A stretch of 64,000 bases of DNA from an uncultured Acidobacteriota bacterium (GTDB lineage Bacteria; Acidobacteriota; Thermoanaerobaculia; UBA5066; DATFVB01): positions 704,001 through 768,000 of the forward strand of contig CAWEYG010000003.1 in assembly GCA_963813155.1 (NCBI GenBank). The letters run 5' to 3'. Of the stretch, positions 10,405 through 40,546 are shown piece after piece. How positions within the stretch are numbered: the stretch's first letter is position 1; every line of letters begins with the position of its first letter. The notes below the pieces were generated by a model, which worked only from the letters and a program-made list of their open reading frames with translations, searched no databases and was not told where the DNA came from. Both the position numbers and the translations under genes were made by a program.

Positions 10405-10412
10405 ATGACAGT

Positions 10413-10482: not shown

Positions 10483-10495
10483 CAACTCATTGATA
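10483..10495 (-). promoter_or_regulatory. IHF binding site
   Basis: The minus strand reads TATCAATGAGTTG, a perfect WATCAANNNNTTR, between the UAS and the -24/-12 element. Confidence 0.55.
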
Positions 10496-10523: not shown

Positions 10524-10538
10524 TGGCACGGACTTTGA
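10524..10538 (+). promoter_or_regulatory. sigma54 (-24/-12) promoter of the transporter operon
   Basis: TGGCACG-GACT-TTGA: perfect -24 box, -12 box TTGA instead of TTGC, 24 nt before the ATG at 10563. Confidence 0.55.
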
Positions 10539-10562: not shown

Positions 10563-11810
10563 ATGGACATCGCACGCGATACCCGAAAGCCGAAACGCCG
10601 GCGGATCATCCTCGGAATTTCCGGGGTCCTGGCCGTACTGCTCGTCACGCTCGGCCTGAGCCGGCTCAAGCCCGCCGCCCCGTCGGTTGACCGCGGAACG
10701 CTCTGGATCGATGCCGTCAAACGCGGCGAGATGCTCCGCGAGGTGCGAGGAACTGGAACGCTCCTGCCCGAAGTGGTGCGCTGGATCCCCGCGGCCACAG
10801 AAGGGCGGGTGGAACGGATCCTCGTCTACCCCGGAACCGAAGTGAAGCCGGACACCGTGATCCTCGAGCTCTCCAACCCGGACGTCATGCTGGCCTCGCA
10901 GGACGCCGCGCTGCAGCTCAAGAGCGCGGAAGCCGATTTCGTGAGCCAGCGCGTGAGCATCGAGGGGAAGCAGATGGACCAGCAGTCGACGCTCGCCTCG
11001 CTGGAGGCCGACTACAACCAGGCTTCGCGGGAATCCGCGATGAATGAAAAACTTTTCCAGGACGGGCTCGTCTCCAGTTTAGTGCTGCAGAACTCGCGCG
11101 GGAAAGCGGAGGAGCTCTCGAAGCGTCTCGACATCGAGCGGCGGAGGCTCGCCATGAGCGGAGATTCCGTCCAGGCGCAGCTCGCGGCGCAGCGGACTCA
11201 GGTCGAAAAGGTCCAGGCGCTCGTCGCGGTCCGCCGGGAGCAGGCCGGCGCCCTGAAGGTCCGGGCGGGCATCCGGGGGGTCCTCCAGCAGGTTCCCGTC
11301 GAAGTGGGCCAGCGCGTCGCCCCGGGCGCGACGCTCGCGAAGGTCGCCCAGCCGGAGAAGCTCAAGGCGGAGTTGAAGATCGCGGAGACCCAGGCCAAGG
11401 ACATCCTGCCCGGCCAGCTCGCCTCGATCGACACGCGCAACGGCATCGTGCCGGGCAAGGTCTTCCGCATCGACCCGGCCGTTCAGAACGGAACCGTCAC
11501 GGTCGACGTCGCCCTCCTCGGAGACCTCCCGAAGGGCGCCCGGCCCGACCTGACGGTCGACGGAACGATCGAGCTCGAGAGGCTCGAGAAGATCCTCTTC
11601 ATCGGGCGCCCGGCCTTCGGCCAGGAGCGCAGCACCGTGGGAATGTTCCGGCTCGATCCGAACGAGAAATTCGCCGTTCGCGTCCCCGTCCAGCTCGGGC
11701 GGGGCTCGGTCAACACGGTCGAGGTGGTCGGCGGTCTCAAGGAGGGAGAGAAGGCGATTCTCTCCGATATGTCGCGTTGGGACGGTTTCGACCGAATTCG
11801 ACTGGAGTGA
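10563..11810 (+). CDS. Periplasmic adaptor / membrane fusion protein (HlyD/MacA-like)
   Basis: N-terminal TM, EGRVERILVYPG and VRAGIRGVLQQVPVEVGQRV lipoyl halves around a coiled coil, C-terminal VEVVGGLKEGE. Confidence 0.92.
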   Translation: MDIARDTRKPKRRRIILGISGVLAVLLVTLGLSRLKPAAPSVDRGTLWIDAVKRGEMLREVRGTGTLLPEVVRWIPAATEGRVERILVYPGTEVKPDTVILELSNPDVMLASQDAALQLKSAEADFVSQRVSIEGKQMDQQSTLASLEADYNQASRESAMNEKLFQDGLVSSLVLQNSRGKAEELSKRLDIERRRLAMSGDSVQAQLAAQRTQVEKVQALVAVRREQAGALKVRAGIRGVLQQVPVEVGQRVAPGATLAKVAQPEKLKAELKIAETQAKDILPGQLASIDTRNGIVPGKVFRIDPAVQNGTVTVDVALLGDLPKGARPDLTVDGTIELERLEKILFIGRPAFGQERSTVGMFRLDPNEKFAVRVPVQLGRGSVNTVEVVGGLKEGEKAILSDMSRWDGFDRIRLE

Positions 11811-11821
11811 AAGGAAGCGGG

Positions 11822-12538
11822 ATGAACGACACCTCGAAGGCCATGGAAGACCGGTTGATCCAGATGGTGGGTATCCAGAAAGTCTTCTACACGGAAGAAG
11901 TGGAGACCCACGCCCTCTCGGAAATCCATCTGGAAATTTGCCGCGGCGAATACGTCGCGATCGCCGGCCCGTCGGGCTCGGGAAAGTCGACGCTCCTCGC
12001 GATCATGGGCCTGCTCGACACTCCGACCGGCGGCCAGTACATCCTCGCGGGAAAGCCCGTCGAGGACATCGACGCCTCCGAGCGGGCGCGAATCCGGAAC
12101 CGGCAGATCGGATTCATCTTCCAGAGCTTCAACCTGATCGGCGACCTGACGGTTTACGAGAACGTCGAGCTGCCACTGACCTACCGCGGCATGTCGTCGG
12201 CGGACCGCCGGACCCGCGTGCACGAGTCGCTCGAGCGTGTCGGGATGAGCCACCGCACGAAGCACTATCCTTCGCAGCTCTCCGGCGGCCAGCAGCAGCG
12301 CGTCGCGGTCGCCCGCGCCCTCGCCGGCTCGCCATCGATTCTCCTGGCCGACGAGCCGACCGGAAACCTCGACTCCCGGAACGCCGAATCCGTCATGGAG
12401 CTCCTCCAGGAACTGCACCGGGAGGGAGCGACGATCTGTACGGTCACGCACGACCCCCGGTTCGCCCAGCACGCCGACAGGACGATCCACGTGTTCGACG
12501 GGCGAATCGTCGAAGAGACGCTCGCGGCGGAAGCCTAG
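11822..12538 (+). CDS. ABC transporter ATP-binding protein (MacB/LolD-type) #1
   Basis: GPSGSGKST, IGFIFQSFNL, LSGGQQQRV, ILLADEPTGNLD, VTHD. Confidence 0.95.
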   Translation: MNDTSKAMEDRLIQMVGIQKVFYTEEVETHALSEIHLEICRGEYVAIAGPSGSGKSTLLAIMGLLDTPTGGQYILAGKPVEDIDASERARIRNRQIGFIFQSFNLIGDLTVYENVELPLTYRGMSSADRRTRVHESLERVGMSHRTKHYPSQLSGGQQQRVAVARALAGSPSILLADEPTGNLDSRNAESVMELLQELHREGATICTVTHDPRFAQHADRTIHVFDGRIVEETLAAEA

Positions 12539-12550
12539 AAAGGGGCTGCC

Positions 12551-15017
12551 ATGGAGACGGTGCGAGCCTTTCTCCGGGACCTCCGACACGCGGTCCGTGC
12601 GCTCGCCGCCCGCCCGGGTTTCACCGCCGCGGCGATCGTCTCGCTCGCGATCGGGATCGGCGCCGGGACCGCGATCTTTTCGGTCGTTTACGGCGTCCTC
12701 CTGCGGCCCCTTCCCTACCCGGGCGAAAACCGGCTCGTCGATGTCGCCGAGGTCAACGCGAAAGGACACGTCACGCGGATGGCCGACGCGAACTTTCTCG
12801 ACCTGCGCGACCGAAGCCGGACGCTCGAGGCGCTCGCCGAGTACTCGTCCGGCGTCGGAGCCGTCGCGACGCCGACCGAAGCTCTCCGAACGGACGTCGC
12901 CTCCGTTTCGGCGCAATTCTTCCGCACTCTCGGCGTCGAACCGTCGTTCGGCCGCGGCTTCGCGCCGGCCGAGCTCGTCCCGGGCGGCCCTCCGGTCGCC
13001 CTCGTCAGCGAAGAATTCTGGCGCGCTCATCTGGGCGCCGCGCGCAATCCGGGGTCGGTTCCGCTTCGCATCGACGGAGTGCCCCACACGGTCGTCGGCG
13101 TCCTGCCCGCCGGTTTCCATTTTCCCGCAGCCGCGCAGGTGTGGGTGGCGCGGGAGCGGTTCCCGTGGCTTCCGAGTCGCACCGCGCACAACGACCGGGT
13201 AATCGGCCGGAGGAAGCCCGGCGTCTCGCTGGACGCGCTGCGCGCGGACCTCTCGGCCATTGCGAAGCGCCTCGCGGCAGAATACGGCAAGGACACCAAC
13301 ATGGCCGACACGGCGGCCGTGCCGCTGCGCGAATCGATCGTCGGCCGCACCCGGCCCGCCCTTTTCCTTCTCCTGGGCGCGGCGGCGGCGCTCTTTCTGG
13401 TCGGATGCGTGGACGTCGTGGCGCTGCTCCTGGCGCGCGCGGCGTCCCGGCGACGCGAAATCGCAGTTCGACGCGCGCTCGGCGCGGGCCGCCTTGACGT
13501 CATCCGCACGTTTCTCGCCGAGGCGCTCGGTGTTTCCATCCCGGGAGGGATCCTCGGTGTGGCGATCGCCGCGGTCCTCGTGCGCTCGGTCGCCCGGTTC
13601 GCGCCTCCCGGCCTCCCGCGGGTCGCAGAGATCGCGATCGACGCTCCGGCTCTCGCCGCCGCGCTGTTTCTCTCCGTGTTCGCGGCGGGGATGCTCGCGG
13701 TCGCAACCGCGTGGAACGAGTACGGCAGCCGGCTCGCCGAAGTGCTCCGCGGGCACCAGACCACCTCCGACACCCGGACTCGCCGGGCGCAACGAACGCT
13801 CTCGGTCGGCCAGCTCGCCGTCACGACCGTCCTCCTCGCGGGTGTTTCCCTGCTCGCCCGAAGCCTCACCCGGCTGCTCGACGTTCCTTTCGGATTCCAG
13901 CCGGCTCACGTGCTGACCATGGATCTCGACCTTCCGGCCGCGGGATATCGCTACGTCCTTCCCTCGGACGAACGGTCGCAAAGGGCCGAGAAGATCGCCC
14001 GCGTCCTCGACGGCGTGAGCCGCCTCCCGGGCGTCGAAAAGGTGGGAGCGACCGACGCGCTCCCGATCGGTACCGACGCGCCCGACGGCACGTTTCTCCT
14101 TCTTCAGCCGGGACAGGCGATCACCGATCCGTCCGATTTCGAACGGCTCTTCCGGGACGCCGGCCGAACGGGATCGGCCGATTTCGCGCTCGCGACGGCC
14201 GGGTACTTTCCTTCGATGGGAATCCCTCTGCTGCGGGGACGCCTGTTCGACGCGCGCGACGGCGCAGACGCCCCTCACGTCGCCGTGATCAGCCAATCCC
14301 TGGCGAAGGCGCGCTTCGCCGACCGGGACCCCATCGGGCAGGCGATCGAGTTCGGCAACATGGACGGCGACCTGCGGCCGCTGACGATCGTCGGCGTGGT
14401 CGGCGACGTGCACGAGAGCCGCATCGAGAACCCGCCCGAGCCCATTCTGTACGCCAACCTCGCGCAGCGCCAGAAGGGACCGACCGTGACCGTGACGATA
14501 CGCGCCGCCGGCAACCCCCTCGCGCTCGCGGCAGGCCGCGCGTCGCGTCGCTCGCGACGTGGATCCCTCCGTTCCGGCGACGATTCGGACCATGGACGAA
14601 GTGATCGCGGAGGCTGTCGCGCCCCGCCGCGTCGGGCTCCTGCTGCTTGTGGTCTTCAGCGTGGCCGCGCTCGCGCTCGCCTGCACGGGGCTCGCCGGCA
14701 TCACGGCCTACTCGATCGCCCAGCGGCAGCGCGAGATGGGAATCCGAACGGCGCTGGGGGCGCGTCCCTCCGGTCTTCTCGGGCTGCTTCTTTCCGAGCA
14801 GTCCCGGCTGGTCGCCGCCGGCGTGGCGGCGGGAGCCGTGATCGCCGCGGCGTTCGGAGGGACGGCTCGCGCGGTGCTGTTCGGAGTCGAGGCCTGGGAC
14901 CCGCTCTCGCTCGCGGCGTCCGCGGCGGTTCTCGCCGGGTGCGCGACGATCGCCGTTCTGATCCCCTCCCTGCGCCTGCTCCGGCTTCCCGCTGCGGACG
15001 CGTTGCGAATGGAATGA
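12551..15017 (+). CDS. ADOP-family duplicated ABC permease #1 (frameshift near 14535)
   Basis: DLRHAVR..PGFT..LAIGIGAGTAIFSVV, RRREIAVRRALGA, second half QRQREMGIRTALGA, ending DALRME. Confidence 0.88.
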
Positions 15018-15026
15018 GGTGAAAAA

Positions 15027-17438
15027 ATGAACGGCTTTCTGCACGACCTTCGATTCGCCGCCCGCTCGCTGAGAAAGTCGCCGGGCTTCACGGCGGTCGC
15101 CGTCGCGACCCTGGCGCTGGGGATCGGCGCGAATACCGCCATCTTCTCCGTCGTTCATGCCGCCCTTCTTCGCCGGCTGCCGTTCCGGGACGCCGATCGG
15201 CTCGTCTTCGTCTGGGAATCCGCCAGGACGCAGGGTTCGGAGAAAAACGTCGTCAACCCGGGCAACTACATGCGCTGGACGGAGAGAAACCGATCCTTCG
15301 AGAGCCTCGCGGCGATGACCCCGTGGACCGCGAACCTGAGCGGGCCGGGAGATCCCGTTCGAATCAAGATCGGCTACGTCTCGGGGAACTTCTTTCCGAC
15401 TCTCGGAGGCCTGCCCCTCGCCGGACGGCTCCTGCAACCGTCGGACGCGAAGGACCGGAGCCCCGACGTGGTCGCAATTTCCGCGGGGCTCTGGCAGAGG
15501 CGCTTTGGAAGCGACCCCTCGATCCTCGGGAAGATCGTCCGGATCAACGGCGTCCCCTGCGCCGTGGTCGGAGTCGTACCGCTCCATCTCGACGTTCCCG
15601 CCGGCACGGATGTCTGGATGCCGATGGCGTTCGGCGCCCGGCAGCGGGACGTGCCGGGAAGGTATCTGACCGTCATCGGGCGTCTGAGGAGGGGCGTTTC
15701 CCTTCGACAGTCTCAGCAGGAAATGGCGTCGATCGCGGCCGCGCTTCGGAAAGAGCGTCCCGACATCGACAGCGGGTGGGGCGCGCGCGTCGTTTCGATG
15801 CGCGAACAGATCGTCGGCGATTTTCGAACCGGCCTTCTGGTCCTGATGGGGGCCGTCGGCTGCCTCCTGCTGATCGGTTGCGCGAATCTCGCGAATCTCG
15901 TCCTCGGCCGGACGGCCGGCCGGCGGCGGGAGCTCGCCGTTCGCGCCGCGCTCGGGGCTTCCCGCGGGCAGATCGCCCGGGCCCTCCTCGCCGAAACCGT
16001 TCTGCTCGCGATCGCGGGAGGCTTCGCAGGAGGCGCGTTCGGAATCCTCGGCGTCCGGGCGCTCCTGGCCCTCGTCCCGGCGGACCTTCCGAATTTCCTC
16101 GGCGTGCGCGTCAGCGCGCCCGTTCTGGCATTCACGGCGGCCGTCTCGGTTCTCGTCGGCTTTCTCTTCGGCCTCTATCCGGCCCTTCGCGCCGGAGGTG
16201 GAAACCTGCAGGAGAGACTGCGGGGCGCGGGCTCGACGGACTCGCCCACGGGCGCGAAATACTCCCGCTGGCTGATCGGCATGGAAGTCGCCGCCTGCGT
16301 CGTCCTTTTGTCCGGCGCCGGCCTGCTCCTGAGAAGCCTGGCCGCGCTCTGGAGCGTCGATCCCGGTTTCCGCACCGAAAGCATCCTGACTTTTCGCCTC
16401 GACCTTCCCACCCGGAGCTACTCCGATTCGCAGAAAATCACGACTTTTTCGGATGCCGCGGAACAAAGGCTGCGCTCCCTGCCCGGCGTGAATAGCGTCG
16501 GGGTCATCAGCTGGCTACCGCTCGGCGGGCCCGGCGCGGCGACCCAATACTTTCCCGCGGACCGCCCCGCGCCGGCCCCGGGCTCCGAACCGGTTGCCGA
16601 AGTTCGAGTCGTCAGCTCCGGATTCTTCCCGACGGCGGGAGTGCCGCTTCTTCACGGCCGGCTCTTCGGAAACGAGGACTCGGCGCGGAGCCCATTGCGC
16701 GCCGTGATCAACGCTCAGCTGGCCCGAAGAAGCTTCGACGGCCGCGATCCGATCGGTAAGCGGCTTTCCGTGAGCTGGGGCCCGGCCCCGGAAGGCGAGA
16801 GCGTGGAAGTCGTCGGCGTCGTGGCGGACTCGCAATTCGTCTCTCTCGACGCGGAAGTTCGCCCGGTGATCTTCCTTCCGCAGAGCCAGCAACCCAACAA
16901 TTTCATGACCGTGCTGTTGCGAAGCTCCGGGCGCCCGGCGTCCCTCGCGCCGTCGATTCGCGCGACGATCCGCTCCCTCGATCCGGAGCTGCCTGTCGCG
17001 GAGATTCAACCGATGGACAGGGTCGTCGCGGATTCCCTCAAACGGCCCCGGTTCTTCTCGACGCTCCTCGGCCTGTTCGCAGGTCTCGCGCTCCTGCTCG
17101 CGGCCATCGGCGTCTACGGCGTCGTCAATTCGTCAACCGTCCGGCGAACCCGCGAAGTCGGAATCCGGATCGCTCTCGGCGCGCGCCCCGCCGACATCGT
17201 CCGGAACGTCGTCTCACGGGGGATGTTGCCGGTCGCCGCGGGCGCCGCAACCGGCCTCGCGGGATCGTTCGTCGCGGGGCGCCTCCTCAAGAGCCTCCTG
17301 TTCGGAAGAACCCCTGTGGACGCCGTCGCCCTCCTCGGCGCGGTTTTCCTTCTCGTTACGACGGCCCTCATCGCCTGCGCGATTCCCGCCCGACGCGCCG
17401 CGAAAATCGATCCCCTCCGGGCGCTTCGAGCAGAGTGA
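15027..17438 (+). CDS. ADOP-family duplicated ABC permease #2
   Basis: 803 aa, two MacB-PCD/FtsX repeats, LGIGANTAIFSVV, CANLANL, REVGIRIALGA, IDPLRALRAE. Confidence 0.92.
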   Translation: MNGFLHDLRFAARSLRKSPGFTAVAVATLALGIGANTAIFSVVHAALLRRLPFRDADRLVFVWESARTQGSEKNVVNPGNYMRWTERNRSFESLAAMTPWTANLSGPGDPVRIKIGYVSGNFFPTLGGLPLAGRLLQPSDAKDRSPDVVAISAGLWQRRFGSDPSILGKIVRINGVPCAVVGVVPLHLDVPAGTDVWMPMAFGARQRDVPGRYLTVIGRLRRGVSLRQSQQEMASIAAALRKERPDIDSGWGARVVSMREQIVGDFRTGLLVLMGAVGCLLLIGCANLANLVLGRTAGRRRELAVRAALGASRGQIARALLAETVLLAIAGGFAGGAFGILGVRALLALVPADLPNFLGVRVSAPVLAFTAAVSVLVGFLFGLYPALRAGGGNLQERLRGAGSTDSPTGAKYSRWLIGMEVAACVVLLSGAGLLLRSLAALWSVDPGFRTESILTFRLDLPTRSYSDSQKITTFSDAAEQRLRSLPGVNSVGVISWLPLGGPGAATQYFPADRPAPAPGSEPVAEVRVVSSGFFPTAGVPLLHGRLFGNEDSARSPLRAVINAQLARRSFDGRDPIGKRLSVSWGPAPEGESVEVVGVVADSQFVSLDAEVRPVIFLPQSQQPNNFMTVLLRSSGRPASLAPSIRATIRSLDPELPVAEIQPMDRVVADSLKRPRFFSTLLGLFAGLALLLAAIGVYGVVNSSTVRRTREVGIRIALGARPADIVRNVVSRGMLPVAAGAATGLAGSFVAGRLLKSLLFGRTPVDAVALLGAVFLLVTTALIACAIPARRAAKIDPLRALRAE

Positions 17439-17447
17439 GGTGACGCG

Positions 17448-19859
17448 ATGACCGGAATTTGGCACGACCTCCGATACGCGGCGCGGACGCTCCGCAGGTC
17501 TCCCGGTTTCACCGCCGTCGCGGTCCTGACGCTCGCCCTCGGCATCGGAGCGAACACGGCGATCTACGGCATCGTCAACGGAGTCCTCCTGCGGCCGCTC
17601 CCCTTTCCCGACTCGGATCGCCTCGTCATGGTCCGCGAAGACGAGCCCGAGAAGGGATTTCTCGGCATGACCGCTTCGCCCCCCAATTTCCTGGATTGGA
17701 AGGCCCAGAGCCATTCCTTCACGGATCTCGCCGCCTACGATCGAAGCTCGGACGCGGTCACCGGCTCGGGCGATCCGGAGCAGGTGAAGTACGCGGAGGC
17801 CACGGCCTCGCTCTTTTCCGTCCTCGGCGTCCGCCCGGCGATCGGCCGCGTCTATTCGGAGCAGGAGTGCGTCAAGGGGAAAGACCGCGTCGCGGTGTTG
17901 AGCCACGGGCTCTGGCTGCGCCGATTCGGAGGACGCGCGGACGCGGTCGGTTCGACTCTGCGGCTCGCCGGCGAGCCGTACACCGTGATCGGGGTGATGC
18001 CGCCCGGGTTCCAGTTTCCGGCGACGAACCACGACCTCTGGATTCCCATGAGCTTTCCCGCAGACGTCGCGACGCAGCGCGGCGCCCATTACATTTCCGT
18101 CGTGGGACGGCTTCGGCCGGGGGTTTCCCTTCCGGGAGTCGAGACCGAAATGAAGGGAATCGCGTCCCGCCTCGCGGCCGCGTATCCCAAAACGAACCAG
18201 GGGCACACGGTCTCGATCAAGACGCTGAAGGAACAGATCGTCGGAAAGGTGAAGCCCGCGCTCCTCCTGCTGATGGGAGCCGTCGCTCTCGTCGTCCTGA
18301 TCGCCTGCGCGAACGTCGCGAACCTGCTCCTCGCCCGCTCGTCGGGCCGCGGCCGGGAAATGGCGGTTCGCACCGCGCTCGGCGCGGGCCGGCCGCGCCT
18401 GATCCGGCAGCTCCTCACGGAGTCGTTGCTCCTCTCCGGAATCGGCGCGGCGCTCGCGGTCCTGCTCGCGCGGCTCGCCGACGGACTCATCATCCGGTTC
18501 GGACCGAAGGACATTCCGCGGCTCGCCGAGGCGGGAATCGACGGCGCGGTTCTGGCCGTGACGGCGGGGATCGCCGTGGCGACAACCGTCGTTTTCGGCC
18601 TGCTCCCCGCGCTTCGGGCGACCCGCTCCAGTCCGTCTTCCACGCTCAAGGAAAACTCTGCCACGGGAGGCCCGAACCGGGAGCGCCTCCGCGGCGTCCT
18701 CGTGGCCGGCGAGATGGCGCTCGCGCTCATGCTCCTCGCCGGCGCGGGCCTTCTCGTCAAGAGCCTTTCACGGCTGGTGCGAATCGACCCGGGGTTCCGA
18801 ACCGACCACGTCCTGACGTTCGACCTCACACTCGACTCGAAATACAAGGACACGGCGGCGGTGTCCGGCTTCTATCGAGGCCTTCTCGACGAGATCAACC
18901 GGATCCCCGGCGTCCGCGCTTCGGGAAGCGTGTTCTGCGCCCCGCTCTCCGACTCGGGGTTCAGCAGCTCGTTCTCCGTTCGGGGCGCTCCCGTCCCGGA
19001 GCAGGACCAGCCTTCGCTCAATCTCCGCGTCGTCTCGCCCGATTACTTTCGCACGATGAGGATTCCGCTCGTCGCAGGCCGGCTCCTCTCGGACCACGAC
19101 CGCCGCGGCGGCGACCGGGTCCTGCTGCTCACACAGACGGCGGCGCGCAGGTTCTGGCCGAACGGAGGAGCAATCGGACAATACCTGCGCCTCGGCGCGC
19201 GGCCGAGCTCGGACGAGGTGGAGGGCACGGTCGTCGGGATCGTCGGGGACACCCGTGATTCCGCTCTCGCCGAAGACCCGCAACCCGCGGCCTACTTTCC
19301 GCTCGACCAGGTCGGCGTTTCGGGATTGACGATCGTCGTTCGAACGGCACAACCGCCCAAAGCCGTCGCCGCCTCCGTTCGAAGCGTCGTCTCCCGCCTC
19401 GACCGGGACCTGCCGGTCGTCGGAATGACGTCGATGGACGACGTCGTCTCCCAGTCGCTCGCGCGACCCCGGTTCTACGCATTCCTGCTCCTGGTCTTTT
19501 CGCTGACCGCCCTCGGGCTCGCCGCCGTCGGGATCTACGGGGTCCTTTCGTACGCGGTCGCCCAGCGGACCCGGGAAATCGGCATCCGGATCGCCGTCGG
19601 GGCAGAGCGCAAGGACGTGATGGCGATGATCCTCCGCCGGGCCGCGCTCCTCGCGCTCACCGGCCTGGGAGCGGGGCTCGTCGCGTCGCTTCTCTCGACG
19701 CGCCTGCTTTCGGGGATTCTCTACGGCGTGGCGCCGACGGACCCCGCGACGATCCTCGAGGTCTCGGCAGTTCTTTTCGCCGTCGCGCTCCTGGCTTCCT
19801 ATTTCCCGGCGCGCCGGGCGACGCGGGTCGATCCGATGACGGCGCTTCGGAACGAATGA
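17448..19859 (+). CDS. ADOP-family duplicated ABC permease #3
   Basis: 803 aa, LIACANVANLLLAR, QRTREIGIRIAVGA, VDPMTALRNE. Confidence 0.92.
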   Translation: MTGIWHDLRYAARTLRRSPGFTAVAVLTLALGIGANTAIYGIVNGVLLRPLPFPDSDRLVMVREDEPEKGFLGMTASPPNFLDWKAQSHSFTDLAAYDRSSDAVTGSGDPEQVKYAEATASLFSVLGVRPAIGRVYSEQECVKGKDRVAVLSHGLWLRRFGGRADAVGSTLRLAGEPYTVIGVMPPGFQFPATNHDLWIPMSFPADVATQRGAHYISVVGRLRPGVSLPGVETEMKGIASRLAAAYPKTNQGHTVSIKTLKEQIVGKVKPALLLLMGAVALVVLIACANVANLLLARSSGRGREMAVRTALGAGRPRLIRQLLTESLLLSGIGAALAVLLARLADGLIIRFGPKDIPRLAEAGIDGAVLAVTAGIAVATTVVFGLLPALRATRSSPSSTLKENSATGGPNRERLRGVLVAGEMALALMLLAGAGLLVKSLSRLVRIDPGFRTDHVLTFDLTLDSKYKDTAAVSGFYRGLLDEINRIPGVRASGSVFCAPLSDSGFSSSFSVRGAPVPEQDQPSLNLRVVSPDYFRTMRIPLVAGRLLSDHDRRGGDRVLLLTQTAARRFWPNGGAIGQYLRLGARPSSDEVEGTVVGIVGDTRDSALAEDPQPAAYFPLDQVGVSGLTIVVRTAQPPKAVAASVRSVVSRLDRDLPVVGMTSMDDVVSQSLARPRFYAFLLLVFSLTALGLAAVGIYGVLSYAVAQRTREIGIRIAVGAERKDVMAMILRRAALLALTGLGAGLVASLLSTRLLSGILYGVAPTDPATILEVSAVLFAVALLASYFPARRATRVDPMTALRNE

Positions 19860-19869
19860 GGAGGCTCGA

Positions 19870-22295: not shown

Positions 22296-22302
22296 GGGAA
22301 TC

Positions 22303-24799: not shown

Positions 24800-24808
24800 G
24801 GTGAAACG

Positions 24809-27229: not shown

Positions 27230-27238
27230 GGTGATTCG

Positions 27239-29680: not shown

Positions 29681-29690
29681 GGAGACCAGA

Positions 29691-32099: not shown

Positions 32100-32124
32100 T
32101 GCACGGACGAAAAGGAGACCTTCC

Positions 32125-34581
32125 ATGAACGGACTCGGCCAGGACGTTCGCTTCGCGCTGCGGAGCTTCCGCAAGTCGCCCGGCTTCACGGCGGTCGCGG
32201 TTGTGACGCTCGCGCTCGGCATCGGCGCGAATTCCGCCATCTTCTCGGTCGTCGATGCCGTCCTGCTCCGGCCGCTGCCGTTCCGCGATCCGGGGCGCCT
32301 CGTTCAGATCTTCGAGCCCCTCTCCGAAGGCCAGGGAGCGAGAAACAGCCAGTCGTACCTCGACGTCCAGGACTTTCGGTCAATGAACCGGGTCTTCACC
32401 GGCATCGCCACCTACCGTTCGGAAAGCTTCACTCTCACGGGCGAGGGCGAACCGCTGCACGCTCGAGGAACGGTCGCTTCTTCGAATCTCATGGAGGTTC
32501 TCGGGATTGCGCCCAAGCTCGGCCGTTCCTTCACGCCGGCCGACGACCGGCCCGGGCCGCGGACGGTTCTCCTCGCCGACGGCCTCTGGCGCCGCCGTTT
32601 CGCGGGCGACCCGGGAATCGTCGGACGCACGATCCTGATCGACGGCCGCGCGTTCCGGGTCGCCGGAGTGATGCCGGCCGGGTTCCAGTTTCCGATCGAT
32701 CCCCGTCCCGGCGAGCTCTGGGCGAACGCGGGACTCGACGCCGAACGGCCGGCCGACGATCCGAACGGAAAGTCGCAGGCCGAACAGCGCGGGTGGCGCT
32801 CTCTTCGAACAGTCGCCCGGCTGAAGCCCGGCGTGACGATCGGCCGGGCGACGGCCGAGATGAACGCGATCGCCCGAACGCTCGCCGCGCTCCATCCGGA
32901 CGAAGACGCGCGCCGGAGCGCCGAGGTCCTGGCGCTGCACGAATCGCTGGTTCGCAACCTCGAGCCCGCTCTGCTCGTGCTCTTCGGCGCCGTGGGTTGC
33001 GTGCTCCTCATCGCGTGCGCGAACATCGCGAATCTTCTGCTCGCTCGCGCGGCATCCCGCGAAAAGGAGCTCGCCGTTCGCGCGGCCATCGGAGCGAGCC
33101 GGGCCCGGATGATCCGCCAGCTTCTGACGGAGAGCGTTCTCCTCTCGCTGTTCGGCGGGGCCGCGGGGGTCCTGCTGGCGTACTGGGGAATCGCGCTCGT
33201 CGTCGCCCGCGGCCCGCGGGACCTGCCGCGGCTTTCCCAGATCCACCTCGATGGCTGGGTTCTCCTCTTCACGGCGGCGCTCTCGCTCGTCACCGGCGTC
33301 GTCTTCGGGTTGGCCCCCGCGTTGCGCTCGTCGCCTTCGCGGCTGGCCGAATCGTTGAAAGACGGTGGCCGGGGGGCGAGCGCCGGTCTCCGACAAAATC
33401 GATTTCGAAGCCTGCTCGTGATCGCCGAAGTCACGCTCGCGCTGATTCTCCTCGCGGGGGCCGGACTGCTGCTCCAGAGCTTCGTTCGTCTCCAGCGCGT
33501 CGACCCCGGTTTCCGGCCCGATCACGTCCTTTCGCTGCGCTTCAGCCTCCCGGACCGGTCCTATCCGACTTCGGCCCGGATCGCGGCATTCGTCGCGGGC
33601 ACGGTCGAACGGTGCGCGGCCGTGCCCGGCGTCGTTGCCGCGGCCGCCGTCGGTCCCCTTCCGCTCGGAGGCGGCAACATGGGAACGAGTTTCGAGATCG
33701 AAGGACATCCGACCCCGAAGGCCGAACAGCCGGGCACCGACGTCCGGATCGCGACGCCCGGATACTTCCGAACGATGGGTATTACTCTGTCTTCCGGGCG
33801 CGATTTCCAGCCCGAAGACCGGATCGACGCTCCGCCGGTCGCCATCATCAATCAGACTCTCGCGCGAAAGTTCTTTCCCGGCGTCGACCCGATCGGGCGG
33901 CGGATCCGGCCCGGACTGAGCGCCCTTCCCGGGGATCCTCCCTTCCGGCGAATCGTCGGAGTCGTGGGAGACGTCAAGCACGTCGAGCTCGCGGAGGTCG
34001 ACGGCCCGGAGACGTACCTGCCGGAGGGGCAGGTGCCGTTCAGCACGATGACGGTCGTGGCGCGCACGGCGGGAAGGCCGCTCGACGCCGAGGCCTCGCT
34101 CGCGGCCGCCGTTCACGCCGGCGATCCGACGGTGCCCGTTTTCGACGTTCGGACGATCGACGAGTACATGTCGCAGGCCGTCGCCCGGCCCCGCTTCAAC
34201 GCGGTCCTCCTCGGCCTGTTCGCCGCGCTCGCGCTCGTCCTGACGGCGGTCGGCCTGTACGGAGTCCTGTCCTATTCCGTTTCCCAGCGCACGCACGAGA
34301 TCGGAATCCGGCGCGCGCTCGGCGCCAGCGATTCCGCCGTCTACCGCCTCGTCGTCGGCCATGGCATGCGCCTCGCGGCGCTCGGTCTCGTCCTCGGAAT
34401 CGCCGGGGCTCTCGTGGCGACGCGACTCCTCTCGACGCTGCTGTTCCGGATGAAGCCGTTCGACTTTCCGACCTTCGCCGCCGTGACGCTCGGTCTCGCG
34501 CTCGTGTCCCTCGCGGCGTCGTGGCTGCCGGCCCGGCGGGCCGCGGGGATCGAGCCGACGGTGGCGCTGCGCGACGAGTGA
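32125..34581 (+). CDS. ADOP-family duplicated ABC permease #9
   Basis: 818 aa, CANIANLLLAR, QRTHEIGIRRALGA, IEPTVALRDE. Confidence 0.92.
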   Translation: MNGLGQDVRFALRSFRKSPGFTAVAVVTLALGIGANSAIFSVVDAVLLRPLPFRDPGRLVQIFEPLSEGQGARNSQSYLDVQDFRSMNRVFTGIATYRSESFTLTGEGEPLHARGTVASSNLMEVLGIAPKLGRSFTPADDRPGPRTVLLADGLWRRRFAGDPGIVGRTILIDGRAFRVAGVMPAGFQFPIDPRPGELWANAGLDAERPADDPNGKSQAEQRGWRSLRTVARLKPGVTIGRATAEMNAIARTLAALHPDEDARRSAEVLALHESLVRNLEPALLVLFGAVGCVLLIACANIANLLLARAASREKELAVRAAIGASRARMIRQLLTESVLLSLFGGAAGVLLAYWGIALVVARGPRDLPRLSQIHLDGWVLLFTAALSLVTGVVFGLAPALRSSPSRLAESLKDGGRGASAGLRQNRFRSLLVIAEVTLALILLAGAGLLLQSFVRLQRVDPGFRPDHVLSLRFSLPDRSYPTSARIAAFVAGTVERCAAVPGVVAAAAVGPLPLGGGNMGTSFEIEGHPTPKAEQPGTDVRIATPGYFRTMGITLSSGRDFQPEDRIDAPPVAIINQTLARKFFPGVDPIGRRIRPGLSALPGDPPFRRIVGVVGDVKHVELAEVDGPETYLPEGQVPFSTMTVVARTAGRPLDAEASLAAAVHAGDPTVPVFDVRTIDEYMSQAVARPRFNAVLLGLFAALALVLTAVGLYGVLSYSVSQRTHEIGIRRALGASDSAVYRLVVGHGMRLAALGLVLGIAGALVATRLLSTLLFRMKPFDFPTFAAVTLGLALVSLAASWLPARRAAGIEPTVALRDE

Positions 34582-34623
34582 GCGGAGCGGAAGGATTTCT
34601 TTCGCGGAGAATGAGGTGAACAG

Positions 34624-37067
34624 ATGACCGGAATCCTTCAGGATCTTCGTTTTGCGGCCCGGTTGCTGCGCCGCTCGCCCGGGTTCGCGTTCGGATCGAT
34701 CGTCGTTCTCGCTCTCGGCATCGCGGCCAACGTGACTCTCTTCGGCGTCGTCGACACGGTTCTTCTCAAGCCGCTGCCCTTTGACCACCCCGATCGCCTG
34801 TATGCGATCGTCACTTCGGACGTGAAGCAGCATTTTCGCGCCGCGGCCTCGCCTCCCGACTTCCTCGACTACCGCCGGTCGGTTCGCTCCTTGAAAGACG
34901 TCGCGGCTTCCCAGCCCTGGAACCCGAACGTCACCGGCGAAGCGTCTCCCGAAAGACTGAACGCGCTGCTCGTCTCGGCGAACTTCTTTTCGACCCTCGG
35001 CGTTTCCGCCGCGCGGGGCCGAACGTTTCTTCCCGCCGAGGAAGTCGACGGCCGTGAACGGGTCGCGGTTCTCAGCGACGCTTTCTGGAGACGAAGGTTC
35101 GGCTCGGACCCATCGCGGGTCGGCAAACCGATCCGGCTGAACGGCGAAGAGTACATCGTCGTCGGCGTCATGCCCCCCGGATTCCGGTGGGGCCGCGCGT
35201 ACGGCGGGAGCGGGGCCGCGGACCTCTGGGCGCCGTTCGCGCTGACGCCCTCGCGGATTGCCCCCGACCAGCGCGGCAACGAATACCTCGACCTGATCGG
35301 CCGGCTTCGGCCGGGCGTTTCCGTCCGAGCCGCTCAGGGCGAGATCGACCAGCTCATGGAGGGATTCCGCCGAAGCTACCCGGAGAACTTTCCCCGAGGA
35401 GGGGGGCTCACCACGACGCTCGTTCCCCTCCGGGACGACCTGGTCGAAAACGTGCGCTCGCCTCTCTGGGTGCTCGTCGGTTCGGTCGGGTTCCTTCTGG
35501 CGATCGCGTGCACGAACGTGGCGGGCCTTCTTCTCGCCCGGGCCGCGGCGCGGCGGGGCGAAATCGCGATTCGGGCTTCGCTCGGCGCCACCCGGCAGCG
35601 CCTGCTGCGCCAGCTGCTCGCGGAGAGCGCCCTGCTGGCGTTTGTTGCCGGGGCCCTCGGAGCGTTTCTGGCGGCGGTCGCGTTGGGCGTCGTCCGGCGC
35701 GCGGGTTTCGAGACCTTTCCAGGACTGGAGAGAGCGAGATTCGACGGCGCCGCCGCGGTTTTCTCCGTCGGAGTCTCGGCGCTGACGGCCGTGCTTTTCG
35801 GTCTTCTCCCGGCTCTGGGGGACGACGCGTGGGAACCTCAGGGAAGAGATCGACGCGGATCGGCAGGCCTCCGGTGGAAACCGGGGCCGGCTGCGGCGGT
35901 TTCTCGTGGCCTCGCAGATGGCGTTCGCATCGCTGCTTCTGGTCGGCGCGGGTCTCCTCGTCTCGAGCCTTTCCCGGCTGCTCCAGCGTCAATCCGGGGT
36001 TCGACCCCAACGGCGTCGTCGCCGGCGAGATCTCGCTCCCCCCCTCGCGATACCCGGACCGGGCGTCCCGCGCGGCATTCGCGGAGGCTGTCCTCGCGCG
36101 CCTGCGCTCCGAGCCGGGAATTCGGGCCGCCGGCGCGGCCGAGATTCTTCCGCTCGGGGGTGAGATGAACAGCTCGACGTTCGACGTCGAGAATCGGCCT
36201 GCCGAGCCGGGAGGAACGAAGCCCCACGCCGAGAGCTGGCGAGCCTCGGTCGGCTATTTCGAAACGATGCGGATCCCGCTCTTTCGGGGGCGTCTCTTCG
36301 ATGCGACCGACCGACCCGGATCGGTGCCGGTCGCGATCGTCGACGAAGCGCTTGCGAAGAAATACTTCGGCGGGTTCGGCGCGCTCGGCAGGAGAATCGA
36401 TTTCGAGGGCGACCCGGGCGCGCCGCGATGGCGCGTCATCGTGGGAGTCGTCGGGACGATCCGCGCCCGATCGCTCGACGACGAGCCGCGATCCGCGTTC
36501 TATGTTCCTTTCGCGCAAAGGCCGCCCGGAATGATGGCGCTCGTCGCGAGGACGGGAGGCGATCCGAATCTCGCGGCCCAGGGGCTGCGATCCGCGGTCG
36601 CGGCCGTCGACCGCGACCAGCCGGTTGCCGACGTCGTGCCGCTCTCGGAGGTCCTGTCGGCGTCGGTGTCCCGCCGGCGGCTCGCGGCGGTCGCTCTCTC
36701 GGCCTTCGCCTCGTCGGCGCTCGTTCTCGCGGGCATCGGTCTGTACGGCGTCCTGGCTTACTCCGTCGCCCAGCGGCGCCGCGAGATCGGCATCCGAATG
36801 GCCCTCGGCGCCCGCCCCGGATCGGTCCTGCGCCTCGTCCTGGGCGAGAGCTCGAAGATGATCGCCCTCGGCATCGGGTCGGGCCTCGCGGGCGCGGCCC
36901 TGGCGACGCGATGGCTGACCGGCCTTCTTTACGGCGTCGCGCCGCTCGATCCCGCCACTTTCGCCGGCACGGCAGCCGTGCTCGCCTGCGTCGGTCTCCT
37001 CGCGAGCGGCCTCCCCGCCCGAAGAGCCGCGAGAATCGACCCGATGGAAGCCCTGCGATCCGAATGA
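34624..37067 (+). CDS. ADOP-family duplicated ABC permease #10 (frameshifts near 35815 and 35985)
   Basis: DLRFAARLLRRSPGF start, CTNVAGLLLAR. The final piece runs VNPGFDP...QRRREIGIRMALGA...IDPMEALRSE. Confidence 0.88.
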
Positions 37068-37110
37068 GGGTCGGCGGAATCCTGTCGTTTATGATGAAGG
37101 AGACGCAACG

Positions 37111-37776
37111 ATGATCCAGCTTCGCAACGTCGAAAAGTCGTTCCCCGCGGGAGGGGGCCGCACGTTCGTTCTGCGGCAGATCGAGCTGGGCGTGGAGGAA
37201 GGCGAGTTCGTCTCGATCATGGGCCCGTCCGGATCCGGAAAGACGACGCTCCTCTCGATTCTCGGCATGCTCGACGCGGACTGGAGCGGCGAGTACGAAT
37301 TCCTCGGCCAGTCCGTCCACCGGATGAAGCCGAAAGAGCGCGCGGAGCTCAACAAGAAGAACATCGGGTTCGTCTTTCAGCAGTACCACCTCCTCGACAA
37401 CCTGACGGTCCGCGAAAATCTCGACGTTCCCCTGTCGTACCGAAACGTCAAATCGTCCGAACGAGCGGCGCTCGTCGCGGACACGCTCGACCGCTTCCGC
37501 ATCGTCGGAAAAAAGGATCTTTTCCCCTCCCAGCTCTCCGGCGGGCAGCAGCAGCTCGTGGGCGTCGCGCGCGCGCTCATCGCGAAACCGAAGCTCATCC
37601 TCGCCGACGAACCGACCGGGAACCTCCACTCCGACCAGGGGCGGGAGATCATGGAGCTGTTTCGCGAATTGAACGCCTCCGGCACGACGATCATCCAGGT
37701 GACCCACTCCGACACGAACGCGGGGTACGGAAACCGGGTCGTCCGCCTCCACGACGGGTGGATCCAACGCGATTGA
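37111..37776 (+). CDS. ABC transporter ATP-binding protein (MacB/LolD-type) #2
   Basis: GPSGSGKTT, GFVFQQYHL, LSGGQQQLVGVARAL, LADEPTGNL, VTHS. SD AAGGAG upstream. Confidence 0.95.
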   Translation: MIQLRNVEKSFPAGGGRTFVLRQIELGVEEGEFVSIMGPSGSGKTTLLSILGMLDADWSGEYEFLGQSVHRMKPKERAELNKKNIGFVFQQYHLLDNLTVRENLDVPLSYRNVKSSERAALVADTLDRFRIVGKKDLFPSQLSGGQQQLVGVARALIAKPKLILADEPTGNLHSDQGREIMELFRELNASGTTIIQVTHSDTNAGYGNRVVRLHDGWIQRD

Positions 37777-37809
37777 CGCGAGCTCTCAAACGCGGAATGC
37801 TCGCGTAGG

Positions 37810-39180
37810 ATGCCGACGACCGGAGAAACCGCGCCCCGCCTGCTCGTGGCCGACGACCAGCCGGCGGTCCTCGAGGCGATCCGACTTCTCGTCAAGCCGG
37901 AGGGCTTTCTCGTGGAAACGGCGGGCTCGCCCGCGGCGGCCCTGGATGCCGCCCGCCACCGGGAGTTCGACGCCGTCCTGATCGACCTCAACTATGCGCG
38001 CGACACGACTTCGGGGCGGGAGGGGCTCGATCTCCTGACCCGGCTTCTCGAGACCGACGAGACGCTTCCCGTGATCGTGATGACCGCCTGGGGCTCGATC
38101 GACCTCGCCGTCGAGGCCGTGCGCCGCGGTGCCCGGGATTTCGTCCAGAAGCCGTGGGACAACGCGCGCCTTGTCGCGACGCTTCGCACCCAGGTCGAGC
38201 TCGGGGCCGCGTTGCGGCGCGGGAGGCGGCTCGAGGCCGAGAACCGTCTTCTGCGGGGCGCCGGCGCGCCGCCGATCGTCGCTCAATCCGCCGCGATGCA
38301 GCCGATCCTGCAGATGGTCGCGCGGGTCGGGCCCACGGAAGCAAATGTCCTCATCACCGGGGAAAGCGGAACGGGAAAGGGACTCATCGCCCAGGCGCTC
38401 CACGCCGCGTCCCGGCGCGCCGCAGCCCCGATGGTCACGATCAACATGGGCGGGCTGCCGGAAGGCGTTTTCGAGAGCGAGCTGTTCGGGCACGTCAAAG
38501 GGGCGTTCACCGACGCGAAAGCCGACCGAATCGGGCGATTCGAGCTCGCCCGCGGCGGAACTCTGTTCCAGGACGAAATCGCGAACCTGACGCTCGCGCA
38601 GCAGGCGCGTCTCCTCCGCGTGATCGAAACCGGCGAGTTCGAGCCCGTGGGATCCTCCCGGACGCGCCGCGCCGACGTGCGAATCCTGTCCGCGACGAAC
38701 GCCGACCTGCGGCAGGAAGTCGCGGCGGGAAAGTTTCGCCAGGACCTGCTGTTCCGCCTCAATACCGTCGAGATCTCGATTCCGCCGCTCCGCGAGCGCC
38801 CGGACGACATCGCCGGCCTCGCGACGCACTTCCTCGGGCTGCACACGGTCCGCCACCGCAAAAAGGCCAACGAACTGGATCCGGCGGCGCTCGACGCGCT
38901 GCGGCGGTATCCCTGGCCCGGAAACGTGCGAGAGCTCGAGCACGTGATCGAGCGCGCAGTCCTGATGTCGGAAGGAGAGCGAATCCGCATTTCCGACCTG
39001 GGGCTCGCCTCCGGGCGCGAGACGGACACCCGCCTCGAGGAAATGGGGCTGGAAGAAATGGAAGCACTGCTGATCCGAAAGGCTCTCGCGCGCCACGAAG
39101 GCAACGTGAGCAAAGCGGCCGACGCGCTCGGCCTCTCGCGAAGCGCGCTGTACCGGCGGCTCCAGCGGCACGGAATGTGA
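37810..39180 (+). CDS. sigma54-dependent response regulator (NtrC family: REC-AAA+-HTH)
   Basis: LLVADD..DLNY receiver, GESGTGKG, ESELFGH..GAFTDA, FRQDLLFRLN, WPGNVREL, Fis-type HTH LGLSRSALYRRL. Confidence 0.95.
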   Translation: MPTTGETAPRLLVADDQPAVLEAIRLLVKPEGFLVETAGSPAAALDAARHREFDAVLIDLNYARDTTSGREGLDLLTRLLETDETLPVIVMTAWGSIDLAVEAVRRGARDFVQKPWDNARLVATLRTQVELGAALRRGRRLEAENRLLRGAGAPPIVAQSAAMQPILQMVARVGPTEANVLITGESGTGKGLIAQALHAASRRAAAPMVTINMGGLPEGVFESELFGHVKGAFTDAKADRIGRFELARGGTLFQDEIANLTLAQQARLLRVIETGEFEPVGSSRTRRADVRILSATNADLRQEVAAGKFRQDLLFRLNTVEISIPPLRERPDDIAGLATHFLGLHTVRHRKKANELDPAALDALRRYPWPGNVRELEHVIERAVLMSEGERIRISDLGLASGRETDTRLEEMGLEEMEALLIRKALARHEGNVSKAADALGLSRSALYRRLQRHGM

Positions 39181-39190
39181 GTCGCAGGCG

Positions 39191-40546
39191 ATGCTGAAGC
39201 GGCCGCGACGCAACCACGAGGGACGGATCTTCGGCCTCGCGCTCGCCGCCGGGCTCCCCGCGATCGCCGGCGCCGGAATCCTTCTGTGGACCGCTCACGC
39301 GGGCCGGGGCCTCGCGTGGACGGTCCTCGCGCTCCTCGCGGGCTCGACCGCGGCGTTCGCGTTCGCGATTCGGAGCCGCGTCGTCCGGACCCTCCAGACG
39401 GTCGCGAACCTGCTCGGCGCGATCCGAGAAGACGACTACTCGATACGGGGAACGATCACGCCGGGCCAGGACGCCTTGAGCCTCGTCTTCTGGGAGATCA
39501 ACGAGCTCGCGGAAACCCTTCGGGGCCGGAGGCTGGGCGAGCTCGAATCCGCCGCCCTCTTGCGCGCGGTCGTCGCGAAGATCGACACGGCGATTTTCAC
39601 GTTCGATTTCGACGCGAACCTGCAATTCGTGAACCGCTCCGCGGAATCGCTCCTCGGAACGCCGGCGGACAGGCTTGTCGGGAAGCGGGCCGCGGACCTC
39701 GGCCTCGCCGAATGGCTCGAGGGCCCCGAGGCGAGGACCGTCGAGCACGTCCTTTCGGTCCCCGGCCGCTGGTCCGTGCGCCGCTCGGCCTTTCGCGAAG
39801 AGGGCCGCCCGCACCACCTCGTCGTCGTCACCGATCTCCGCCAGGCGCTGCGCGAGGAGGAGCGGCAGGCCTGGCAGCGGATCATCCGGGTCCTCGGGCA
39901 CGAGCTGAACAACTCGCTCGCGCCGATCCGCTCGATCGCAGAGAGCCTCCTCTCGGCTTCCGCGAGAACGCCGCGGTCCGCCGACTGGGATGCCGACCTG
40001 GGCCGCGGCCTCGAGGTCATCGGCTCCCGCGCGGCCGCATTGACGCGATTCCTCGAGGGATACCGGCAGCTCGCCCGGCTCCCCGAGCCGCAGCGCCGCC
40101 GGGTCGATCTCGCCGGCCTTCTCCGGCGCGTCGCCGCTCTCGAGAGCCGCGTCCCGGTTCGCGTCGCCGGAGGGCCCGACGTCGTGATCGAGGCGGACGG
40201 AGATCAGCTCGAGCAACTCTTCATCAACCTCCTACGGAACGCCGCCGATGCGGCCCTCGAGACCGGAGGATCGGTAGAGGTCGGGTGGGACCTCGGCCCG
40301 GGCGGGGTCGAAGCGAGCGTCATCGACGACGGACCCGGCATCGCCAGCACGAACAACCTCTTCGTGCCGTTCTACACGACGAAACCGGGAGGCTCGGGGA
40401 TCGGCCTGCTTCTCAGCCGGCAGATCGCCGAGGCGCACGGCGGCTCCCTGACGCTGTCCAACCGCCGCGATGCGACCGGCTGCGTCGCGCGCCTGACGCT
40501 GCCGATCGGGCCCTGGACCCGCACCGGCGACGCCGCCTTTCAGTAG
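39191..40546 (+). CDS. Sensor histidine kinase (2 TM, PAS-like, HisKA, HATPase)
   Basis: Two closely spaced TMs, FVNRSAESLLG PAS-like segment, H-box HELNNSLAPI, NLLRNA, DDGPG, PFYTTKPGGSGIGL. Confidence 0.93.
   Translation: MLKRPRRNHEGRIFGLALAAGLPAIAGAGILLWTAHAGRGLAWTVLALLAGSTAAFAFAIRSRVVRTLQTVANLLGAIREDDYSIRGTITPGQDALSLVFWEINELAETLRGRRLGELESAALLRAVVAKIDTAIFTFDFDANLQFVNRSAESLLGTPADRLVGKRAADLGLAEWLEGPEARTVEHVLSVPGRWSVRRSAFREEGRPHHLVVVTDLRQALREEERQAWQRIIRVLGHELNNSLAPIRSIAESLLSASARTPRSADWDADLGRGLEVIGSRAAALTRFLEGYRQLARLPEPQRRRVDLAGLLRRVAALESRVPVRVAGGPDVVIEADGDQLEQLFINLLRNAADAALETGGSVEVGWDLGPGGVEASVIDDGPGIASTNNLFVPFYTTKPGGSGIGLLLSRQIAEAHGGSLTLSNRRDATGCVARLTLPIGPWTRTGDAAFQ

Follow-up and report, generated by a model that had tools for sequence, protein, structure and literature searches.

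A predicted common transport motor for the ten tandem ADOP permeases of an uncultured Acidobacteriota bacterium

Permeases of the ADOP family (TIGR03434) are by name and definition orphans, having no ATPase gene adjacent to them. Here we describe a cluster in which ten such permeases lie in tandem, together with a periplasmic adaptor, two ATP-binding cassette (ABC) ATPases and a two-component system of the sigma-54 type. It is found in a stretch of 64,000 nucleotides (nt) with a G+C content of 66%, hereafter the window, from the genome of an uncultured Acidobacteriota bacterium (GCA_963813155.1, here G000; contig CAWEYG010000003.1, G000:C3:704001-768000). The cluster is real, intact after error correction, conserved and operon-like, and its layout is a common one which has been described in outline before. 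Our reading, drawn from sequence comparison and given a probability of roughly 0.55, is that it encodes an inducible type VII ABC chassis common to a set of interchangeable permeases, whose likely task is the removal of envelope-active compounds.

Closest described systems

In Psychroflexus torquis, ten ADOP paralogs (the figure legend gives eight) form a 42-kb cluster which is reported to be highly translated (PMC3914696). As in the window, the paralogs are accompanied by other transporter genes, including ATP-binding ones, and the passage on them suggests efflux; unlike the window, the cluster belongs to another phylum and lies on a genomic island, and that passage makes no mention of a common motor, of sigma-54 control or of turnover from genome to genome (PMC3914696). 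For Dyadobacter, 28 and 33 ADOP copies are given in the section concerned (PMC11573002). A literature search by title, outside subscription papers and supplements, turned up no functional study of an ADOP and no shared motor.

The array permeases resemble the ADOP family in sequence and architecture: the six units with open frames score 825-984 bits against a TIGR03434 cut-off of 622, the other four being broken by assembly errors (see below), and the MacB_PCD and FtsX domains are internally duplicated within about 800 amino acids (aa), as seen in the domains of unit 7 and the model of unit 9. The host is likewise acidobacterial; the adaptor is 92% identical in locus L063, labelled Thermoanaerobaculia, and most of the 80 adaptor loci are labelled Acidobacteriota or its groups. 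Five solo copies of the same genome also follow the family pattern, each lying behind a PadR gene of TIGR03433 (L143-L146; contigs C2, C4 and C5). Unlike orphans, the array copies sit with an adaptor, two flanking ATPases and a sigma-54 two-component system, orphan status being a trait of context and no sequence criterion.

An AlphaFold2 model of unit 9 (pLDDT 91.7, pTM 0.89, from a 65-row alignment) predicts a type VII fold with eight transmembrane (TM) helices and two periplasmic domains, for which Foldseek returned YbbAP, MacB, LolCDE and BceAB. The MacAB-TolC pump shares this predicted fold (Foldseek to MacB, E 2e-14, probability 1.00; phmmer E 1e-12), a periplasmic adaptor (Pfam above cut-off, TIGR01730 just under) and ATPases of the MacB/LolD type. 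However, MacB forms homodimers, carries its ATPase in the same chain and has a single permease type for each adaptor, whereas in the window each permease joins two halves in a single polypeptide, two different ATPases are encoded as separate proteins, one adaptor accompanies ten permeases, and the operon has no TolC gene; in place of the ATPase fused to a four-helix permease that marks MacB, separate ATPases are found, and the best NCBIfam MacB score is 240 bits against 966. The best structural match is YbbAP-TesA of Escherichia coli, in which a fused double permease with two periplasmic domains likewise has a separate ATPase (PMC12646458, PMC5985334), but YbbAP is described as working with a hydrolase, whereas the partner gene here is an adaptor (PMC12646458). 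The identity is 15%, YbbP has two extra linking helices compared with the eight TM segments of unit 9, and the two ATPases reach 211 and 172 bits against a YbbA cut-off of 336.

Modules of the Bce type carry an OmpR-type response regulator; the window instead has an NtrC/sigma-54 regulator, and it differs further in its many permeases and its adaptor. The likeness lies in the kinase, which in BceRS-BceAB is also a loop-less membrane protein that lacks an outside sensor domain and has its gene alongside that of a MacB-fold transporter (PMC7828314). BceB is described as having ten helices and one large outside domain (PMC5985334), in contrast to the predicted eight helices and two periplasmic domains of the array permease. 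Finally, DarBCD combines a permease, an adaptor and a separate ATPase (PMC8442675), and supplies the nearest named hidden Markov models for the ATPases, but the scores fall far below the cut-offs (adaptor 62 against 450 bits for DarC; ATPases 255 and 242 against 375 for DarD), no DarB match was listed, and the window's operon holds no precursor or radical-SAM gene.

Set against the weight given to it in the initial annotation, the layout is less unusual: the window's array is one more instance of a widespread arrangement and does not represent a system of a new kind. What the present analysis adds is the error correction, the turnover pattern, a near-perfect adaptor-ADOP profile with a single-copy ATPase-2, and the promoter prediction. 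The same adaptor was also seen in records labelled outside the Acidobacteriota, namely Opitutaceae and others (L078, L080, L081, L085, L088, L093 and L101, and further L102, L103, L117, L121, L124 and L132); in the Opitutaceae records the regulator and kinase genes precede that of the adaptor. Binning errors may account for some of these labels.

A motor common to many permeases

All genes of the cluster lie on the plus strand in the order adaptor, ATPase-1, ten ADOP units, ATPase-2, NtrC-type regulator and kinase. The order, strand and coordinates first annotated were unchanged on rechecking, and the gaps, then put at about 7-45 nt, measure 7-43 nt at all 14 junctions, several of which have the stop codon of one gene merged into the ribosome-binding site of the next. 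The G+C content is flat throughout the cluster region. The adaptor, or membrane fusion protein (10563..11810, 415 aa), matches Pfam HlyD_D23 and HlyD_3 above cut-off and reaches 93.4 bits with TIGR01730 against a cut-off of 94.9. It is followed by ATPase-1 (11825..12538), which is LolD/MacB/DarD-like, and ATPase-2 (37111..37776, 221 aa) lies beyond the permeases. Walker A, Q-loop, signature and Walker B are kept in both ATPases; the D-loop is canonical in 14/14 orthologs of ATPase-1 and has His for Asp in 14/14 orthologs of ATPase-2.

It is probable, from the distribution of these genes, that the permeases share one motor. The genome G000 encodes 15 full-length ADOPs, the ten of the array and the five solo copies, together with a single ATPase-2 and one full adaptor of the array type, of which a redundant strain contig carries a further, partial copy. 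Neither operon ATPase type was found beside the five solo ADOPs, one of which nests among array members of another family (support 0.998). A sixth, fragmented ADOP lies at the end of contig C6 (G000:C6:227812-228899). Among 161 genomes of the phylum, a sample which includes G000 and the relative G008, the adaptor was found in 66 and ADOPs in 67, with both in 66 and neither in 94; the single mismatch, an ADOP genome without the adaptor, is an assembly of 620 contigs in which the kinase is present. This pattern is patchy inside families (1/4, 1/2, 5/8 and 2/12). ATPase-2 is single-copy (67-82% identity) in all five ADOP-rich genomes, which were chosen for their many ADOPs and hold 20, 34 and, in three of them, at least 53 (53/53 scored). 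Motor genes also occur apart from permeases: in G032 and G067, two of these five genomes, an operon of adaptor, ATPase-1, regulator and kinase has no ADOP within the 14 kb fetched, and in L112 the adaptor, both ATPases, regulator and kinase stand in a row with no permease between them. The co-occurrence in 66/67 genomes, the single-copy ATPase-2 and the permease-free motor operons lend good genomic support to the single energising chassis proposed in the initial annotation.

MacB-family pumps are described as expelling drugs and peptides, with ATP binding moving their periplasmic domains (PMC5985334), and a comparable mechanism can be envisaged here. Each permease would be a fused pseudo-dimer in need of two ATPase subunits, likely ATPase-1 and ATPase-2, a pairing suggested because both are kept as distinct types and the D-loop change of ATPase-2 is fixed; the five PadR-headed ‘orphans’ would use the operon motor in trans. 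ATP-driven motion of the periplasmic domains (mechanotransmission, as in MacB) would push cargo, taken from the periplasm or the membrane surface, into the adaptor and a TolC-type duct supplied from elsewhere in the genome. The periplasmic domains would set specificity, and whole genes would be slowly gained, lost and reordered to tune the set, whilst the kinase and NtrC activator would turn on the promoter before the adaptor, creating a positive loop. Detoxifying efflux is the job we favour for such a system, at somewhat better than even odds.

Control of the operon and competing functions

Upstream of the adaptor, a sigma-54 promoter is predicted on the plus strand (10524..10538; -24 box TGGCAC, variant -12 box), preceded by a predicted enhancer, or upstream activator site (10411..10439, plus strand), which is a degenerate copy, with three mismatches, of a palindrome conserved in relatives. 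In 13 of the 14 loci used to define the promoter and enhancer motif, a TGGCAY -24 box is found 29-40 nt upstream of the adaptor start, a distance which rises to 271 nt in the remaining locus, and the palindrome, with 0-3 mismatches, is found in 14/14 at -90, -97 to -99 or -112 from the -24 box, spacings approximately one helical turn apart. Among 71 further loci the -24 box was found in 32, compared with 4.2% of random windows, and box and palindrome together in 14, compared with 0.16%. Between enhancer and promoter lies an IHF-like site (10483..10495, minus strand), an exact match, in the window alone (1/14 loci), to the IHF consensus; relatives have A/T-rich look-alikes at this place. The sigma factor itself (rpoN) is encoded in G000. 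It is probable that the promoter is driven by the operon's own regulator, an NtrC-family sigma-54 activator with receiver, AAA+ and Fis-type helix-turn-helix domains (37810..39180).

No internal sigma-70-like promoter site was found in the array, and terminator-like sites were not in excess (12 against 11.9 expected, and 8 against 9.7), so that the internal promoters or terminators which would have spoken against a single unit were not seen; one weak hairpin before ATPase-2 (37072-37087) varies between related strains. The cluster is likely to form one sigma-54 operon. The best-matching sequencing runs are soil metagenomes, with no RNA run among those listed. Elsewhere in G000, the best of 261 candidate enhancer and sigma-54 sites heads an AraC-family gene on contig C1 (L060:9521-10750; G000:C1:453521-454750, minus strand), which is likely, by its motifs, a second target of the operon's activator; an IHF-like site lies between its enhancer and sigma-54 box.

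Several observations weigh against an inducible efflux chassis of this kind. The co-occurrence of adaptor and ADOPs is partly built in, as the operon often carries both genes, and related genomes are not independent; other MacB/LolD-type ATPases in G000 could serve the solo permeases. No TolC gene was found in the window's operon or beside it in the fetched relatives, and the nearest TolC-type gene is some 15 kb upstream of the adaptor, behind a regulator of its own. Among the further loci, 39/71 lack a -24 box within 120 nt and 57/71 lack an enhancer match, whilst the window's own degenerate site ranks only eighth of the 261 candidates. The kinase is missing, at the threshold used, from 7 of the 67 ADOP-positive genomes. 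Moreover, type VII transporters are described as also taking part in lipoprotein release, cell division and lipid extraction (PMC5985334, PMC12646458).

As to the duct, G000 has eight TolC-type genes outside the operon (16 domain hits). The nearest (L062:4173-5600; G000:C3:698173-699600) follows a small regulator gene and is followed in turn by RND-like genes; it probably belongs to a separate pump, yet it is a candidate duct.

The kinase (39191..40546) introduces the first of the competing explanations, which is that the permeases form a bank of receptors. They would be mainly sensors, a ligand-bound permease switching on the loop-less kinase through its ATP-powered cycling, as in BceAB-BceS, and the NtrC activator would then drive the operon and other genes. 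In 13/13 aligned orthologs, the two TM helices of the kinase are joined by a loop of only 6-11 residues, with no outside sensor domain; it is single-copy in 60/161 genomes, all of them ADOP-positive, and the site heading the AraC-family gene would supply a second target. BceS-type kinases lacking an outside sensor are described as needing a MacB-fold transporter for sensing (PMC7828314). On the other side, the adaptor, needless for sensing, goes with ADOPs in 66/67 genomes, and the missing kinases noted above count here also. Each of the five solo ADOPs is headed by a PadR gene of its own, and their upstream regions contain no -24 box within 330 nt. The cytoplasmic region after the second TM helix of the kinase, presumably PAS-like and with no Pfam match, could sense alone. 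When permease 9 was modelled together with two copies of the N-terminal 90 residues of the kinase, the prediction gave a score of 0.00, which is evidence neither way. We consider a receptor bank rather unlikely, and it could coexist with efflux. A wider proposal, to be treated as equally tentative, joins pump and receptor: one adaptor and an asymmetric pair of ATPase-1 and ATPase-2 would power every ADOP of the cell, of which some acidobacteria have dozens, the working permease would signal via the loop-less kinase to a sigma-54 switch, as a Gram-negative, multi-ligand counterpart of Bce flux sensing, and the receptor repertoire would alter as whole genes are gained, lost or moved between the operon and PadR-controlled sites.

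That the cell exports products of its own, be they peptides, small proteins, or siderophore-like or lipid molecules, with one permease per cargo class as in DarBCD or MacAB enterotoxin export, is less probable still. The solo ADOPs sit behind genes of the PadR family, which is often tied to drug export, and among the flank genes listed no precursor or biosynthetic gene is a conserved neighbour, the flanks being variable. In its favour, among named NCBIfam models both ATPases match DarD best and the adaptor has DarC as its second hit, with each of these scores far below cut-off, darBCD deletions are reported to cut darobactin yield 2-4 fold (PMC8442675), and the passage on Psychroflexus leaves product release possible (PMC3914696).

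The efflux reading must also be set against machines of the envelope that need no duct, performing lipid or lipoprotein extraction or the activation of a periplasmic enzyme, as do YbbAP-TesA, LolCDE and FtsEX. The best fold match is indeed the fused double permease YbbP (E 2.5e-20) and the operon has no TolC gene, but an adaptor is the hallmark of tripartite pumps and is here tied to the ADOPs, TolC-type genes do lie within the operon in 7/80 loci, and no conserved gene for a periplasmic enzyme adjoins the array among the flank genes listed; we regard such machines as improbable.

Integrity and turnover of the array

The ten permease units run from 12551 to 37067. As assembled, only six are open frames above the TIGR03434 cut-off, namely permeases 2 (15027..17438, 803 aa, 917 bits), 3 (17448..19859, 803 aa, 981 bits), 6 (24809..27229, 806 aa, 901 bits), 7 (27239..29680, 813 aa, 870 bits, with MacB_PCD and FtsX twice each), 8 (29691..32099, 802 aa, 825 bits) and 9 (32125..34581, 818 aa, 984 bits). 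The remaining four carry six frameshifts in total, each a single extra base relative to intact orthologs: permeases 1 (12551..15017, near 14534), 4 (19870..22295, near 21010 and 21326), 5 (22303..24799, near 23055) and 10 (34624..37067, near 35815 and 35986); their pieces cover TIGR03434 model positions 1-803. The ten permeases of about 800 aa first annotated are therefore ten units, of which four are not open as assembled.

These six breaks are assembly errors, because the background rate, an intact strain twin and short-read contigs without the extra bases all agree. From 400 kb of the relative G004, 166 candidate frames were taken, of which 149 had a hit and 92 were kept (at least 50% identity); 18 of these 92 orthologous genes are frameshifted elsewhere in the assembly, with 21 shifts in 124 kb, or 0.17 per kb, so that 4.1 would be expected in the array compared with the six observed (probability of six or more, 0.24). 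Contig C22 of G000 (C22:6970-13676) is a strain twin, 97.6% identical to window 4508-11221, in which the Lon and phosphodiesterase-family frames are intact where the window has seven single extra bases; Lon in the window (approximately 7824-10363, minus strand) is broken by such bases. At all six sites in the array the extra base is missing from near-identical short-read contigs belonging to run X1, possibly the source sample, and at five of them the listed contigs from other studies (X2, X3 or X7) do not have it either. The same three lines of evidence rule out pseudogenes or programmed frameshifts in units 1, 4, 5 and 10. Split genes of this assembly should, at such a rate, be distrusted in general. 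One open frame at 59282-61621 (minus strand) comprises part of the complex I 49-kDa subunit and a NuoH domain, and is probably another extra-base error joining two genes and no true fusion.

A misassembled repeat is ruled out by the 32-45% pairwise identity of the ten paralogs, among which no pair is near-identical, and by the short-read contigs. Those listed bridge five of the nine permease-permease junctions (1|2, 3|4, 4|5, 5|6 and 9|10); none of the listed pieces spans 2|3, and 6|7, 7|8 and 8|9 lie outside the comparison. The initial annotation, which excluded an assembly repeat and proposed shared TM and coupling motifs with divergent periplasmic domains, holds on both points. The first 47 residues of the ten paralogs are 62% identical, the TM and coupling segments 45-47% and the periplasmic domains 33-35%; across the paralogs of 14 genomes, the cytoplasm-facing segments are 51-58% and the periplasmic ones 32-33% identical, equally within and between genomes. 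In ten ortholog pairs, on the other hand, the periplasmic domains (69-72%) are held as well as the TM parts (73%), and faster change of the periplasmic domains within a subtype was not seen at the protein level. Each subtype is thus old and retained, its periplasmic domains being particular to it and its cytoplasmic face common to all. Domain swapping still in progress among the paralogs was ruled out, as no mosaic was found in 100-residue windows of the seven units having an ortholog; gene conversion of the conserved 5' ends was ruled out by identities of 57.5% within and 58.6% between genomes, and no homogenisation within genomes was seen among 126 units of 14 genomes.

The adaptor and the kinase are each present in 14/30 relatives, a count which includes G008, which was not fetched; by family, they occur in 4/6 of the window's own, 10/12 of a second and 0/12 of a third. 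Nine relatives with a contiguous locus have 4, 4, 9, 10, 10, 11, 11, 12 and 12 permeases, and split loci at least 11 and at least 15. ATPase-2 lies at the array end in the window's family and inside the array in the second. When 126 full-length array units of 14 genomes were grouped (17 of 143 aligned rows, being partial, reverse-strand or solo, were excluded), 54-72 ortholog groups were obtained at 50-60% identity, none in more than 9/14 genomes, although an identity threshold undercounts sharing between distant genomes. Permeases 3 and 6 belong to subtypes found in 9/14 genomes. Intact orthologs exist for permeases 1 (70-76% in G004 and G005), 4 (82% in G002), 5 (75% in G005) and 10 (70% in G002), and a partial one for permease 7 (69% in G002); none was found among the fetched relatives for permeases 2 and 8 (best 43% and 42%). 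G000 and G004, whose adaptors are 75% identical, have 5/10 units in common with 2/10 pairs inverted, whereas genomes with 94-95% identical adaptors have 8/10 and 10/12 in common in nearly the same order. A recent tandem permease pair was found in G020, whilst G030, G016, G012 and G022 have collapsed remnants in which a permease is reduced to its start and end. As for their form, those in G030:C63 and G016:C1 (L018 and L023) are in-frame mini-genes of approximately 96 and 59 codons in which start is joined to end, and those in G012 and G022 (L008 and L013) are decayed scars; collapsed remnants may keep translational coupling after deletion. In the window itself, the 3' part of a 42-nt gap (34582..34623, plus strand) resembles a decayed permease gene end, possibly a deletion scar.

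To judge from these comparisons the repertoire is real and changes slowly, with no switching or shuffling device. Of the interchangeable repertoire proposed in the initial annotation, it is the variability of content and order that is borne out, neither array size (4-12 permeases) nor order being fixed among relatives (the inversions against G004), with the qualification that change occurs only on an evolutionary time scale. A mostly non-functional expansion or assembly artefact, in which copies pile up and decay with few in use, could draw on the four broken units and the deletion scars in the arrays of four relatives, but is largely refuted and very improbable, the breaks being absent from short-read contigs and at the background error rate, orthologs intact and 58-82% identical over their length, and all 12 permeases of G004 intact.

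The genes around and within the arrays vary. The window has Lon on one side and, on the other, a phospholipase D-family (cardiolipin synthase-like) gene (40540-41895, minus strand) which converges on the kinase gene and overlaps its end; in G002, but not in G004, a similar gene lies after the kinase. Other genera have different flanks, such as a BlaI-type repressor, a BlaR1/M56 peptidase and an unannotated repeat-protein gene just upstream of the adaptor (L013:2755-6482); similar genes lie likewise upstream in L004, L020, L023 and L026, all of the second family, and are absent in the window's family. A methionine sulfoxide reductase B (SelR) gene stands between the last permease and the regulator in L005 (L005:13535-13942) and likewise in G010, G020 and G030, which belong to one genus. 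Inside the arrays of G016 and G028, a protein of 233-237 aa with a signal-peptide-like start is encoded (L024:9476-10189 and L028:1917-2618), the L024 copy without a Pfam match.

Within a dominant soil phylum the ADOPs make up a large family, with at least 53 copies in each of three genomes. If it is true that one adaptor and one ATPase pair serve them all, a deletion of three genes would silence the whole ADOP family in a culturable acidobacterium, and the predicted promoter would offer a reporter with which to screen for inducers, making the old question of what ADOPs do testable.

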